Positions 41,708 through 46,747 of a stretch of DNA of 64,000 nt are shown in pieces (positions within the stretch are counted from its first letter, which is position 1; each line of letters starts with the position of its first letter). The translations under genes were made by a program, and so were the position numbers. Location of the stretch: sequence record PQ400055.1, one strand, 5' to 3'. This stretch comes from a phage. The notes under the pieces were generated by a model that was given only the letters and a program-made list of their open reading frames with translations, did no database searches and was not told where the DNA came from.

Positions 41708-41899
41708 TTAGATTCCGGCGATCCTGCATAGAGTTCTTGTATTAGCACCAATAAGGATAGCATTAACGACAACCATTCCCCAATCAACCCACGGATTATT
41801 ATAAATGCTAAATCCGTTTGTTAAGCCAAAGACAAGCATTCCGGTACACATACTCAGAGCAATAATCAACATCACGGTAAAACCAAATGCAAATTTCAT
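41708..41899 (-). CDS. small membrane protein
   Basis: 63 aa, two hydrophobic helices. Confidence 0.4.
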   Translation of the reverse strand: MKFAFGFTVMLIIALSMCTGMLVFGLTNGFSIYNNPWVDWGMVVVNAILIGANTRTLCRIAGI

Positions 41900-41900
41900 A

Positions 41901-42167
41901 TTATTTTCCTTTTCTCTGTTTACGTTTATAAAAGTAATACATTACCTCATCGCGTCCGGTGATCCAACATGCTATGGCAGTAAACAGGTTTACAATTCCC
42001 AACACACCTACTGACGCGGCGCTGTCAACAGACATAGGAACAGTAAAGGCCATAGCTAACATAGCAACGCCACAAATGACATTAAGCACCATTATAATAA
42101 GACCGAAGAAAACCATTGTCAATCCTCCGACACAAGAAAACCAACAATCACGCCAGTGATAAGACAT
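41901..42167 (-). CDS. small membrane protein
   Basis: 88 aa, hydrophobic with basic C-terminus. Confidence 0.4.
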   Translation of the reverse strand: MSYHWRDCWFSCVGGLTMVFFGLIIMVLNVICGVAMLAMAFTVPMSVDSAASVGVLGIVNLFTAIACWITGRDEVMYYFYKRKQRKGK

Positions 42168-42310
42168 GATGCGCCGCTAATAAGACAACCCGCGCCAAGT
42201 GATTCCCACCAGATCAGAGAAGCGACAATAACACAGAATCCCCATACTACCGCAATCACAACATAGGCAAGGGTCGCCCAAAACATATATTTGTTCATAA
42301 TAAATCCCAT
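42119..42310 (-). CDS. small membrane protein
   Basis: 63 aa hydrophobic; start likely internal. Confidence 0.35.
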   Translation of the reverse strand: MGFIMNKYMFWATLAYVVIAVVWGFCVIVASLIWWESLGAGCLISGASCLITGVIVGFLVSED

Positions 42311-42483
42311 TCACCAAACAAATAAGAAAAAAGCCATATCAACAGAAACGAGGCAATTGATCCGGCAAGCAAAATGATATTAGAGAATCCGCCGTCTATC
42401 CAGGCGACAAAACAGAATACGCCAGTATAGAAGCATAAACCCAGTACAAAGCATACTATAAGCAACCATAGACAAAACGCCAT
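42295..42483 (-). CDS. small membrane protein
   Basis: 62 aa hydrophobic. Confidence 0.4.
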   Translation of the reverse strand: MAFCLWLLIVCFVLGLCFYTGVFCFVAWIDGGFSNIILLAGSIASFLLIWLFSYLFGEWDLL

Positions 42484-42544
42484 AGAAAGCCCTCCAGTGA
42501 GCTAATTTAGTGCGGGTAGTACATTACCCTACCCGTATTGTTAA

Positions 42545-42703
42545 TCATCGCAGAGCTTCTTCTAGCGCGATCCCAAACCATCCACAAACAACGCCCATAC
42601 AGACAGCTACAAGAAGATTCATTCTCTCTTTAGGGATCATTGCAATCATAACAACAACCATACAGAAAGACATTACCATTGAAGTTAACATTTGTTCAAC
42701 CAT
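42545..42703 (-). CDS. small membrane peptide (52 aa)
   Basis: Below track cutoff; MVEQMLTSMVMSFCMVVVMIAMIP...; fills the gap between neighbours. Confidence 0.3.
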   Translation of the reverse strand: MVEQMLTSMVMSFCMVVVMIAMIPKERMNLLVAVCMGVVCGWFGIALEEALR

Positions 42704-42705
42704 TA

Positions 42706-43044
42706 TCACACCTTTAAAGTCATAGACGCATAAACATTAATGCCAGGCCAGTTAGGATCGCAATTATACTCAACATCCCACAAATAAAGCGGTTTAGATG
42801 TATCAGCCAAGTTTTTAAAATCTTCTACCCACATTTCAAGGCTATATGATGGATAAACTAGGCTATCATATCCGCCGTAACGTTGGCCTACTGGTCGGTC
42901 AGTAAAAACTACCTCAAGATCCGGTAATTCTTTTTCAAGGATAACCGCCAGCGCATAAATCAGACGGTCTTCCTTGTTACGCTGCCGAAGGACCGTTGTC
43001 AGTTGGCTTTTCTGGTTCACTAGCAAGCACCTCCACATTTTCAC
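42706..43044 (-). CDS. hypothetical protein
   Basis: 112 aa ORF; overlaps upstream ORF so the start is probably internal or non-ATG. Confidence 0.4.
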   Translation of the reverse strand: MKMWRCLLVNQKSQLTTVLRQRNKEDRLIYALAVILEKELPDLEVVFTDRPVGQRYGGYDSLVYPSYSLEMWVEDFKNLADTSKPLYLWDVEYNCDPNWPGINVYASMTLKV

Positions 43045-43297
43045 AGAATGAAATTTTCACAGACACAATTTTACCATAAGTGAAGAATGAATATACATTA
43101 TCGAGATATTCAACGTCACCTACAATCACATCAAACTGCGGATCAGCAACCGCCGCAACATATTCTACCAGTTCATCAAGAGAATGCAACTTAATTTCAT
43201 CAATTCGGCTGTATTTGGTTGCATCTTTGATTTTAAAACCACGTTCTTTCAGCTTATCAATTAGAATTTCACGCGGAGTTTCAAACAGTTTGCTCAT
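42977..43297 (-). CDS. hypothetical protein
   Basis: 106 aa ORF. Confidence 0.45.
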   Translation of the reverse strand: MSKLFETPREILIDKLKERGFKIKDATKYSRIDEIKLHSLDELVEYVAAVADPQFDVIVGDVEYLDNVYSFFTYGKIVSVKISFCENVEVLASEPEKPTDNGPSAA

Positions 43298-43318
43298 AAT
43301 ATAATCCTCACATTAAAT

Positions 43319-43519
43319 CTAAAATTTGTTAACGACGAATTGCATAATTAGACTAATCACAAACATTGCAAACCAAGTATAAATGCAACAGATAAAAGCT
43401 ACATACAATTCAATCTGGTCAGAGAATACACCGGGTAAAAGCATTAGCAAAATAACAACAGTAAAGACGCTAGCGATACCCGCAACAAAACCAATATCAC
43501 TTTTACTAATCGTCATCAA
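43319..43519 (-). CDS. small membrane protein
   Basis: 66 aa hydrophobic. Confidence 0.4.
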   Translation of the reverse strand: MMTISKSDIGFVAGIASVFTVVILLMLLPGVFSDQIELYVAFICCIYTWFAMFVISLIMQFVVNKF

Positions 43520-43713
43520 GTCACCGTTTTGTAAAGAAACACAATAAAATCCCAGACAAAAAAGACAGTGAAAATAATCATCGTCAAGACAATAAACACT
43601 GTCAGATTTTCATCGTTAGTTAATTCATGACCGTCCATCCATATAATCACCAGATAAAACATCGAAATCAAGGAGGCGAATACCAAATTATAAAACTCTT
43701 CCTTTAATGACAT
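43516..43713 (-). CDS. small membrane protein
   Basis: 65 aa hydrophobic. Confidence 0.4.
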   Translation of the reverse strand: MSLKEEFYNLVFASLISMFYLVIIWMDGHELTNDENLTVFIVLTMIIFTVFFVWDFIVFLYKTVT

Positions 43714-43714
43714 A

Positions 43715-45190: not shown

Positions 45191-45236
45191 AATTTGATTC
45201 TCCGTTTAAGAAAGTGTGTTTCGTTTCGATGGGTGT

Positions 45237-45265
45237 ATTATGCTATAGGCGTGATCTGGTGTCAA
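45237..45265 (-). promoter_or_regulatory. sigma70-type promoter (TTGACA-17-CATAAT)
   Basis: Leader ACACCCATCGAAACGAAACACACTTTCTTAAACGGAGAATCAAATT. Confidence 0.45.
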
Positions 45266-45287
45266 CAACTTTTTTAAAAAATTTTAG

Positions 45288-45317
45288 GCAATAAAAAAGC
45301 CACTCCGAAGAGTGGCT
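45288..45317 (-). terminator. rho-independent terminator
   Basis: GCCACTC-ttcg-GAGTGGC hairpin plus TTTTTTATT on the minus strand. Confidence 0.55.
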
Positions 45318-45466
45318 TATAGGGAAGGTAGCGAATCTTCCTTGTCTCCAACCTGCTAGCGGCCTAGCAAGTGAATGCTTTAGCGTACCGGATCACCCCA
45401 TACGCTGTAATAAATGCGGCTAGGTGACGTCCAAATCATTCTAACCGCGCTGTCTTTAGTTCACTA

Positions 45467-45685
45467 TTATTTATATCGCTTTCTCTCGCGACGTTTTTGA
45501 TCTTCTTCCTTGATAGAGTCAAATGCATCAAAAAGGCACATGAGACTGATAATGAACATAACCGTATTTTCTACGATATCCCACGTCTTCGCATCAGTAC
45601 AGATCCCCCAAACGGTAAGAAATGCAAATAGTGCAGAAGAGATCACAAGCATGATACTTGCTAAGATATAAAAAGTCATTTTCAT
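45467..45685 (-). CDS. small membrane protein
   Basis: 72 aa, hydrophobic N-terminus, basic C-terminus. Confidence 0.4.
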   Translation of the reverse strand: MKMTFYILASIMLVISSALFAFLTVWGICTDAKTWDIVENTVMFIISLMCLFDAFDSIKEEDQKRRERKRYK

Positions 45686-45876
45686 GGTTTTACCTCAATT
45701 TTTCGATATTCATCACACATCCACGCAGTAAGCAAGAATCCCAGCACATAAGCAACAAAATACGTTAATGCTTCTTCTGGTTTCGTGCTATGTATCATCA
45801 GTAAACCAGCGAGAAAGGTCTTAACAATTACATTTAAAATAATTAGCCACGCAAATAATTTCATCGTTTGCCCCAT
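45682..45876 (-). CDS. small membrane protein
   Basis: 64 aa hydrophobic. Confidence 0.4.
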   Translation of the reverse strand: MGQTMKLFAWLIILNVIVKTFLAGLLMIHSTKPEEALTYFVAYVLGFLLTAWMCDEYRKIEVKP

Positions 45877-46100
45877 TTCGGTCGAGTCTTTTCAAACTTA
45901 TACATTCCGTAACAATCTCGAATCATCCACGTAACAAGAGCACCAGTCAACACAGACAATACACAGAAGAAGTAAAACGGTCCGGTTGCATTATCAACAT
46001 GAGCAAGCCATGTAAAGAAAACACATGCAAGGAACGTGAAGAACATCATAAAGCACAAGAAAGCAAAATATTTTATACTACTCATAGCGCCACCATACAA
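45861..46100 (-). CDS. small membrane protein
   Basis: 79 aa hydrophobic. Confidence 0.4.
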   Translation of the reverse strand: MYGGAMSSIKYFAFLCFMMFFTFLACVFFTWLAHVDNATGPFYFFCVLSVLTGALVTWMIRDCYGMYKFEKTRPKWGKR

Positions 46101-46188
46101 CAGATCACAAGAAACCCCAACGCAATAAGAATTGCATCAAATTTAGTGAACTCCGGTCCACCTATCAACATCATTCGTTCCTGTTCAT

Positions 46189-46386
46189 TCATAGATCACA
46201 GAGCCATCTGAAAGCACCACATAAAGCGAGCAGAATACTAGGTATAAACGAGACTAAAACAAGACTACAAAAATCATCTAAGGTAACGCCGGAATAACTA
46301 CCTACTGTAACAACACCGATTATCAGACACAGAAAGAAAACAAATGCAACCAGAAACAAAGTATTGCTAAACAGTTTAGTGATCAT
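46189..46386 (-). CDS. small membrane protein
   Basis: Track ORF 46189..46431 trimmed to internal ATG (M16). Confidence 0.35.
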   Translation of the reverse strand: MITKLFSNTLFLVAFVFFLCLIIGVVTVGSYSGVTLDDFCSLVLVSFIPSILLALCGAFRWLCDL

Positions 46387-46579
46387 TAGACACCCCACGA
46401 CGATCAATTTCAAAAACTTTTTTACCATCAACGAAGCATGTCACAACTGCCTCGTTGACTTCCGCAAATTGTTGTGTTACCCACTTAAGGTCAGAGCGAA
46501 ACAATGTTCTATTAATAACAAATGTTTTACCGCTCTTATCCTTACCCATAAATTTTGCTTTAACCATATCCAATTCCAT
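46376..46579 (-). CDS. hypothetical protein
   Basis: 67 aa ORF. Confidence 0.4.
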   Translation of the reverse strand: MELDMVKAKFMGKDKSGKTFVINRTLFRSDLKWVTQQFAEVNEAVVTCFVDGKKVFEIDRRGVSNDH

Positions 46580-46588
46580 ATTATCACC

Positions 46589-46747
46589 TTATTTGCCAAT
46601 CGCTAAACCCAATCCGAAGAGAGCACCCGATGCTACAGTATACCCGAAAGTTTCAAATGCAGTAAAGATATCTAAGCCACCAGCTAACAGAGTTGCAGTA
46701 AACAGAGTACCAGCTACGAACATAAAAGTTTTACCGATGAATTTCAT
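46589..46747 (-). CDS. small membrane peptide (52 aa)
   Basis: Below track cutoff; ATG directly after conserved leader and AAGGAGAATCAAA; glycine-zipper-like hydrophobic sequence. Confidence 0.3.
   Translation of the reverse strand: MKFIGKTFMFVAGTLFTATLLAGGLDIFTAFETFGYTVASGALFGLGLAIGK

Follow-up and report, generated by a model that had tools for sequence, protein, structure and literature searches.

Positions 41,708 to 46,747 of the phage sequence record PQ400055.1, analysed here as a window of 64,000 nucleotides (nt), hold a dense cluster of very small hydrophobic open reading frames (ORFs) between an M15 endolysin gene and gene 57B. The cluster comprises 22 ORFs, all on the minus strand, of which fourteen are hydrophobic (m1 to m14) and eight soluble (s1 to s7 and dmd). 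Taken as a whole, we favour the reading that the fourteen are genuine, genus-restricted accessory proteins of the inner membrane that would be made early in infection and would not serve lysis, and we give it a probability of roughly 0.55.

The window is the genome of a Krischvirus, i.e., a T4-like coliphage of the RB49 group resembling RB49, Phi1 and GEC-3S, with 97-99% nt identity to known isolates. Over the 6.1 kb around the cluster, identity to 53 sequenced genomes of the genus (RB49, Phi1, JSE, GEC-3S, kvi and others) is 96-99%, and outside the genus a more sensitive DNA search yielded only short matches, to the endolysin and one soluble ORF. The minus strand carries all genes from about 1 to 53 kb of the window. 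The gene order around the cluster is vs.6, ORF100, vs.8, endolysin, the cluster, ORF125, 57B, 57A, 1, 3, 2, equivalent to the T4 order vs.6-vs.8...e...57B-57A-1-3-2. In T4, the e-57B interval contains nudE, e.2-e.8, rnaC/rnaD, tRNAs, segB, trna.2-4 and ipI. The region is thus what Krischviruses have in the hyperplastic slot of early genes between endolysin and 57B of T4-type phages. According to a review, novel ORFs cluster in a segment that corresponds to positions of about 40-75 kb in T4, and the cluster stretch falls inside it (PMC2993671).

The hydrophobic ORFs are grouped in three blocks (m1-m5, m6-m8 and m9-m14), and the cluster ORFs agree with the coding sequences annotated in GEC-3S, Phi1, W115 and others; the depositors of W115 had already labelled eleven of them "putative membrane protein". 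The grand average of hydropathy (GRAVY) of m1-m14 ranges from 0.33 to 1.79. Their lengths are 36-74 amino acids (aa) with the best-supported starts, and up to 88 aa with the longest ORFs. In Kyte-Doolittle windows, 11-12 of the 14 have two transmembrane (TM) segments, and m1, m12 and m14 have one, or a weaker second. The first-pass annotation had described at least fifteen tiny hydrophobic proteins of 50-90 aa, with one or two TM helices each, lying between the M15 endolysin and a 57B-like gene and downstream of the former. The dense cluster, the small sizes, the helix numbers and both flanking genes are borne out, yet the count is fourteen with soluble ORFs interspersed, and the size range is the one given above. 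All these genes lie on the minus strand, so that the cluster precedes the endolysin in the direction of transcription and is upstream of it. An out-of-frame 36-aa hydrophobic ORF inside s3 (44004-44114, minus strand), which recurs in all relatives examined and is probably a by-product of s3 conservation, may account for the higher count.

TM segments occur in 13 of the 17 small ORFs inside the region versus 3 of the 34 elsewhere in the window (crude gene call; Fisher p = 2e-6). A crude census of the Phi1 genome (160.7 kb) flagged 15 small hydrophobic ORFs, 11 of them in the 5-kb block; this census passed over four cluster ORFs because of overlaps, and two or more of those it flagged are probably spurious, as annotated genes occupy the opposite strand. 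These values indicate that the concentration of TM ORFs in the cluster is non-random and far beyond chance. Two further small membrane ORFs were noted outside the cluster, both on the minus strand: a 97-aa two-TM ORF adjoining tk (35928-36221), which has no Pfam match, and a 52-aa ORF (16625-16783) in which a single TM helix precedes a Cys-rich tail (CxxC...CxxC).

By sequence, the products of the m-ORFs are predicted TM hairpins and not signal-peptide proteins with a soluble domain. AlphaFold2 (AF2) models of m6 (from a 6-sequence alignment, predicted local distance difference test score, pLDDT, of 80) and m2 (from a single sequence, pLDDT of 70) are two-helix hairpins. Basic C-terminal tails are found on m2, m9, m10 and m11, and in m2, m9 and m11 (71-74 aa) two hydrophobic segments are combined with 7-8 Lys or Arg residues in the tail. 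By the positive-inside rule, the four proteins with basic tails are predicted to have their N- and C-termini on the cytoplasmic side, with a short periplasmic loop, often acidic, between the helices.

On four independent grounds, m1-m14 are genuine genes. When all fourteen proteins were concatenated into one tblastn query (856 aa) and searched against 50,697 phage records, matches were confined to 59 Krischvirus records, 53 of which have one syntenic place covering at least 80% of the query. Within the genus, the ratio of nonsynonymous to synonymous polymorphism (pN/pS) was obtained for 12 m-ORFs (12 loci; m7 and m8 left out) and is 0.10-0.52, with m4 at 0.80 and the endolysin at 0.14. In L017, a metagenomic contig from a relative at greater distance (68-90% protein identity), the order s3-m8-m7-m6-s2-s1-m5-m4-m3-m2-m1-endolysin is kept, with ORF lengths equal or within one residue and a ratio of nonsynonymous to synonymous divergence (dN/dS) of 0.13-0.44, except for m6 (0.86). 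Pooled pN/pS is 0.31 for m1, m3-m6 and m8 (binomial p = 3e-12) and 0.21 for m9-m14 when each of these is set against its most divergent allele (p = 2e-17). The ORFs are hence conserved in close relatives and under purifying selection (53 of 59 genomes; pooled pN/pS 0.2-0.3), one of the points on which the first-pass annotation had thought them open to challenge. Loop and polar residues are among the positions conserved in L017, such as SIYNNPWVDWGMVV in the loop of m1 and WWESLGAGCLISGAS in m3, which suggests specific interactions rather than mere hydrophobicity. As for translation signals, 8 of the 14 have a Shine-Dalgarno (SD) match; in each of the other six (m3, m6 and m10-m13) the start overlaps the gene before it by 1-11 nt, the arrangement that translational coupling would lead one to expect.

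Every m-ORF falls in its own high-numbered PHROG of unknown function. None of m1-m14 reached the cut-off of a Pfam family (searched to E <= 1) or an NCBIfam model (E <= 0.1), and when the cluster ORFs were compared with the T4 small proteins (Imm, Sp, rI, rI.1, 61.x, e.2-e.8, trna.2-4, tk.x, vs.x and mobD.x), Dmd was the sole match. A search of about 5.8 billion proteins gave five clusters for m6, at 72-95% identity, and three for m11, each with 99% identity or more; an exhaustive search of the m6-family profile against 1.84 billion representatives gave three matches, none informative. The AF2 models of m6 and m2 are generic hairpins and, compared by Foldseek with the BFVD viral models, gave no match at E <= 1e-3. 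All-against-all Smith-Waterman alignment with shuffles, together with blastp, gave no credible pair of paralogues among the m-ORFs (the best of 91 pairs, m7/m9, has z = 4.7; blastp E >= 0.3). Given these results, m1-m14 are genus-restricted orphan genes. One expanded family was considered as an origin of the cluster and is rejected at the sequence level, no paralogous pair being convincing.

Strong sigma-70-type promoters, matching 10-11 of 12 consensus positions, lie on the coding strand at 47254, 46807, 45265, 44996 and 44303, and intrinsic terminators at 47291-47271 and 45318-45297. Two terminator-promoter composites of the promoter-early stem-loop (PeSL) type result, at 47291-47226 and 45318-45237 on the minus strand. 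A 61-nt repeat family accounts for three of these promoters, with copies at 44254-44314, 45216-45276 and 47205-47265. The first-pass annotation had given several of the hydrophobic ORFs promoters of their own; four of the strong promoters lie within the region, but only the one at 46807-46779 directly precedes such an ORF. Arbiol et al. (2010, PMC2839356) showed that PeSL elements of RB49/Phi1 work as early promoters and terminators in hyperplastic regions, where non-essential orphan genes abound.

From these elements, four transcription units can be proposed: P46807 would drive m14-dmd-m13-m12-m11-m10-m9 up to the terminator at 45318, P45265 would drive s7, P44996 would drive s6-s5-s4, and P44303 would drive s3-m8-m7-m6-s2-s1-m5-m4-m3-m2-m1-endolysin. 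The unit with m9-m13 is thus headed by m14 and dmd, a known counter-defence antitoxin gene, and the other unit with hydrophobic ORFs by the LPD25-domain gene s3. A scan of the region for the T4 late-promoter motif TATAAATA gave a single copy, which lies at the stop codon of m9 (45468-45475), and none upstream of m1-m8 or the endolysin. The promoter types point to early expression of the cluster. A further sigma-70 match (TTGACA-17-TATTAT, 11 of 12 positions) spans the m3/m2 junction (42094-42122, minus strand), and m1 and the endolysin might be transcribed separately from it. Several promoters have their -10 hexamer or their spacer within an inverted repeat with a G-rich and a C-rich arm, as in GGGGGTA...TACCCCC at 46771-46794 and GGGTGTAT...ATACACCC at about 44270-44291. 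The coordinates of all features are presented in Table 1.

Table 1. Features of the cluster and its surroundings, in order of position in the window.
Feature	Position	Strand	Evidence and remarks
rI antiholin (outside cluster)	34961..35263	-	PF24205, 82.8 bits; TATAAATA late-promoter motif at 35297-35304
M15 endolysin	41290..41679	-	PF13539, 46.8 bits; distal gene of the putative transcription unit containing m8-m1
m1, 63 aa, one strong TM and a weaker second helix	41708..41899	-	own PHROG 15016; dN/dS 0.13 vs L017
m2, 71 aa, two-TM hairpin, basic C-tail	41901..42116 (longest ORF to 42167)	-	AF2 two helices, pLDDT 70; dN/dS 0.22
m3, 59 aa, two-TM	42119..42298	-	no SD; 4-nt start overlap with m4 stop; dN/dS 0.13
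m4, 62 aa, two-TM	42295..42483	-	tandem duplicate in JK32; pN/pS 0.80 within genus; dN/dS 0.44 vs L017
m5, 52 aa, two-TM	42545..42703	-	two allele classes (~79% and ~98% aa identity); dN/dS 0.22
s1, soluble orphan	42706-43020	-	sequence
s2, soluble orphan	42977-43297	-	sequence
m6, 65 aa, two-TM hairpin	43319..43516	-	AF2 helices 5-30 and 34-64, pLDDT 80
m7, 65 aa, two-TM	43516..43713	-	hydropathy; divergent allele
m8, 60 aa, two-TM	43715..43897	-	dN/dS 0.20
s3, soluble LPD25-domain protein	43906..44232	-	PF18840, 53.8 bits; heads the putative unit running m8...m1 to endolysin
Early sigma-70-type promoter TTGACA-17-CATAAT	44275..44303	-	member of repeat family D1; annotated as promoter in GEC-3S
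s4 (55.3-like, DUF5490, just under Pfam cut-off), s5, s6, soluble	44312..44938	-	Pfam, annotation
Early sigma-70-type promoter TTGACA-17-TACAAT	44968..44996	-	GGGGAG...CTCCCC inverted repeat in spacer (44973-44989)
s7, soluble 61-aa DUF7421 protein	45005..45190	-	PF24196, 136 bits
PeSL-type composite: terminator 45318-45297, then early promoter 45265-45237	45237..45318	-	sequence; concept from PMC2839356
m9, 72 aa, two-TM hairpin, basic C-tail	45467..45685	-	last gene of the putative dmd transcription unit
m10, 60 aa, two-TM	45682..45864	-	no SD; 4-nt overlap with m11
m11, 74 aa, two-TM hairpin, basic C-tail	45861..46085	-	no SD; 4-nt overlap with m12
m12, 36 aa, one C-terminal TM	46082..46192	-	4-nt overlap with m13
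m13, 65 aa, two-TM	46189..46386	-	start 11 nt inside dmd
dmd (discriminator of mRNA degradation; antitoxin against RnlA/LsoA), soluble	46376..46579	-	PF17587, 55.4 bits; 45% identity to T4 Dmd, E = 2e-16
m14, 52 aa, hydrophobic, glycine-rich	46589..46747	-	heads its putative transcription unit
Early sigma-70-type promoter TTGACA-17-TAAGAT	46779..46807	-	would drive m14-dmd-m13...m9; annotated as promoter in GEC-3S
57B	47298-47768	-	annotation of relatives

Between the m9 stop codon and the terminator at 45318-45297 lies a non-coding stretch of 177 nt (45290-45475, minus strand) with a folding energy of -63.6 kcal/mol (z = -5.1 versus shuffles). It is almost invariant in 11 Krischvirus genomes, and the single TATAAATA motif of the region lies directly upstream of it. 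Rfam and tRNA scans of the region, this stretch included, gave nothing at threshold. The stretch is a candidate small RNA of about 170 nt; the syntenic slot of T4 holds the stable RNAs rnaC and rnaD.

The dense packing of the coupled genes admits another explanation, in which the chain dmd-m13-m12-m11-m10-m9 (perhaps also m4-m1 and m8-m6) encodes the subunits of one hetero-oligomeric inner-membrane complex. Overlaps of 4 nt (11 nt between dmd and m13) link five consecutive ORFs that have no SD of their own, which favours roughly equimolar co-translation; the ORFs are retained together in nearly every genome, and loop and polar residues are conserved. However, tight packing and overlaps are general in T4-type early regions, the soluble ORFs of this one included, and the modules show independent allele replacement (m5, m6/m7 and m13). 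We regard a single complex as unlikely. More speculative, and likewise unlikely, is a dedicated membrane toolkit found in Krischviruses only, in which co-translated two-helix subunits (nine TM helices in dmd-m13...m9) might form undescribed hetero-oligomeric complexes that block incoming phage DNA or membrane-acting abortive-infection effectors early in infection, the subunits perhaps having arisen de novo from T-rich sequence.

Lysis was the first role the first-pass annotation had offered for the cluster, in the form of holin, antiholin or lysis inhibition, together with the remark that no canonical holin is annotated. That remark holds within the window, where an RI antiholin is nevertheless encoded (preceded by the late motif TATAAATA), but not for the genus: a T-type holin of 218 aa lies directly after the distal tail-fibre gene in GEC-3S and Phi1, as in T4 (PF11031, 206.7 bits; GEC-3S 154079-154735). 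Phi1 also has the spanins pseT.3 and pseT.2, as well as rI. With T holin, RI, spanins and M15 endolysin all found, the canonical lysis cassette is complete without the cluster, and a holin or antiholin role of the cluster proteins is hence unlikely. No m-ORF matches PF11031 even at E <= 1, a family of about 218 aa with one TM segment and a large periplasmic domain, and none matches the RI antiholin family PF24205 in the Pfam search.

It might still be that some of the ORFs are lysis proteins of another kind (class-II-type holins or pinholins, antiholins or timing modulators) acting with the adjacent M15 endolysin. Class II holins and pinholins, such as S21 of lambdoid phages, have about 70 aa, two TM helices and a charged C-terminus; they are expressed late with the lysis genes, and their timed, lethal opening of the membrane lets the endolysin out. 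The architecture is shared by m2, m9 and m11, with their highly basic C-tails, yet it is generic and not diagnostic; moreover, m1-m5 lie immediately upstream of the endolysin and would share one transcription unit with it. The best scores against holin models are 15.0 bits for Phage_holin_3_5 (cut-off 27) and 13.5 bits for Phage_holin_3_6 (cut-off 28.4), sub-threshold touches that are typical of TM noise. Unlike class II holins, the m-ORFs belong to no holin family and have promoters of early type, and the genus or the window already has T holin (206.7 bits), RI (82.8 bits) and spanins; the sole TATAAATA of the region stands at the m9 stop codon. In Slopekvirus phT4A, which belongs to another T4-like genus and has a related M15 endolysin, the 14 ORFs neighbouring the endolysin include no TM ORF, save one that is lipoprotein-like, so adjacency to the endolysin is not a general property. 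A lysis role is thus improbable, and the first-pass proposal of one is not supported.

Somewhat less probable still is that the ORFs are evolutionary by-products with little or no function, either young ORFs born de novo from T-rich sequence or remains of a multi-pass membrane gene that has decayed. In favour of this, they are genus-restricted without detected homologues or paralogues, 48% of second codon positions are T, some genomes have a truncated m7, and constraint on m4 and m6 is weak in part of the comparisons. Against it, pooled pN/pS is 0.2-0.3 (p < 1e-11), the ORFs hardly change in length or boundaries at 68-90% aa identity, an SD site or exact start-stop coupling is found in 14 of 14, and no larger similar membrane protein was found in Pfam, NCBIfam or, for two of the proteins, about 5.8e9 sequences. 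Decayed fragments in particular are rejected, since the boundaries are conserved and no larger homologue was found. The 48% of T at second codon positions leaves room for a de novo origin of genes that are now functional.

Under the favoured reading of early accessory membrane proteins, host sigma-70 RNA polymerase would read the m-genes early from the strong early promoters, in two polycistronic units, and several of the m-proteins would be made by translational coupling. Each of the 14 proteins would insert in the host inner membrane as a one- or two-helix hairpin, those with a basic tail in an N-in/C-in orientation with a short periplasmic loop. The proteins would be non-essential, and each might attach to, or disturb, either some part of the host inner membrane or the apparatus by which a competing phage enters. 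The outcome could be superinfection exclusion, protection against membrane-acting host defences, or takeover of the host membrane. That individual hairpins bind such machinery is suggested by analogy with T4 Imm, for which a mode of action of this kind is assumed, with T4 Ac, for which it has been proposed, and with small bacterial membrane regulators. The exclusion and anti-defence readings are compatible with the early-type promoters, the inner-membrane hairpins, the hyperplastic location, the linkage to dmd, and the Phi1 record (160.7 kb) having no gene named imm or sp; it has none named ac either. Neither T4 Imm nor T4 Sp gave a tblastn match. Given that almost no other tiny TM ORFs exist in the Phi1 genome, any Imm-like function would have to reside in the cluster.

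Comparison with known systems gives partial likenesses. T4 Imm, the superinfection immunity protein, which keeps the DNA of superinfecting phage from entering (83 aa, two TM segments, early and non-essential), is of the same size class and is also a two-TM hairpin, although no m-ORF matches it in blastp or phmmer better than E = 0.57, no Imm Pfam family is reached at E <= 1, and T4 imm lies in another genomic slot, between genes 42 and 43. T4 Sp differs in kind, being a secreted periplasmic protein that inhibits the gp5 lysozyme, whereas the m-ORFs are TM hairpins without similarity to it. T4 Ac is a small membrane protein for which an interaction with AcrAB-TolC has been proposed (bioRxiv 10.1101/2025.06.30.662393). 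It resembles the m-proteins as a tiny protein proposed to enter the host membrane and modulate a host membrane machine; the comparison was made by annotation. Membrane ORFs also occur in the e-57B slot of T4 (e.3, e.4 and trna.4) and of the Morganella phage MP1, where five larger TM ORFs lie 1.6-4.8 kb from the endolysin. T4 has three of these uncharacterised ORFs and MP1 about five, fewer than Krischvirus, and most of them exceed the m-ORFs in size (90-176 aa, up to 4 TM segments). The T4 ORFs have no sequence similarity to the m-ORFs, and those of MP1 are likened by position and TM segments.

A close likeness is to the orphan cassettes of Arbiol et al. (PMC2839356), which were described in the same RB49/Phi1 group and in which small orphan ORFs lie between core genes, with stem-loop terminators and strong sigma-70-like early promoters that have an AT-rich tract upstream. 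The features of that type seen here are the hyperplastic location between vs.8/endolysin and 57B-57A-1-3-2, the terminator-promoter composites and the orphan status; gene content differs here between some close relatives. In contrast with shuffled cassettes, most of the 14 ORFs are stably kept across the genus.

Differences between relatives are seen at several of the ORFs. MIZ5 has a single 64-aa two-TM ORF, 34% identical to m6, in place of m6 and m7 (locus L006, 5009-5203), and 12 further records, JSE included, show the same 83% query coverage in tblastn. In JK32 and 011D4, m7 is cut to 48 aa, and W115 annotates a coding sequence of the same truncated length. The m7 allele of the window has about 86% nt (74% aa) identity to the 11 compared relatives carrying m7, against 97-99% for the flanking genes; at m7 the window thus has a local stretch that is either foreign or evolving fast. 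In JK32, m4 is duplicated in tandem (locus L005, 4604-5058); the copies have 87% and 73% aa identity, and the second is truncated. Allele replacement is independent by module (m5, m6/m7 and m13). These replacements, truncations and duplications (m6/m7, m7 and m4) are seen while most ORFs are present in 53 of 59 genomes, and no event was mapped to a PeSL junction. Such variation between close relatives would fit accessory genes.

Two of the soluble genes show signs of movement. At the nt level, s7 is 73-78% identical to genes of many T1-like coliphages (Drexlerviridae), which may be taken as a sign of gene exchange between unrelated coliphage families. T4 carries dmd in the interval from gene 41 to gene 61, as a neighbour of 61.4 and sp, and here it lies in the endolysin-57B slot and overlaps m13 by 11 nt; judging by these positions, dmd has moved between hyperplastic regions.

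Several points weigh against the favoured reading. The TM assignments come from hydropathy and AF2 only, and the proposed role in exclusion or anti-defence from analogy and genomic context, not from homology: the m-ORFs show no similarity to T4 Imm, Sp, rI, e.3, e.4 or trna.4 by blastp or phmmer. The absence of imm and sp is based on annotation and tblastn and is weak, since T4 rI was also unmatched despite a real RI homologue. In some comparisons m4 and m6 are weakly constrained (0.80 and 0.86), and the high conservation of most of the ORFs would suit a stable, housekeeping-like role no less than one in an arms race. In the searchable literature, no expression, localisation or phenotype data on the m-ORFs were found, and searches on Krischvirus/RB49 membrane ORFs, transcriptomics and essentiality screens gave nothing specific.

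Existing annotations already list these ORFs, either as hypothetical or as putative membrane proteins, and this type of locus, a hyperplastic region with PeSLs, is published. The concentration of nearly all tiny TM ORFs of the genus in one conserved, dmd-linked early block was not found described in the literature searched; in the searchable text of PMC2839356, "membrane" occurs only for filters, and neither membrane character nor a concentration of tiny TM ORFs is described there. Small membrane proteins are among the least understood phage genes, and the cluster offers a compact, tractable target: one conserved 5-kb block under purifying selection, linked to dmd and divided into three modules. 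Krischviruses are used in phage-therapy cocktails, for which genes affecting exclusion or host range would be of practical relevance. If the fourteen genes prove to be ordinary dispensable orphans, the result would still be a corrected annotation, in which the cluster is not the holin.

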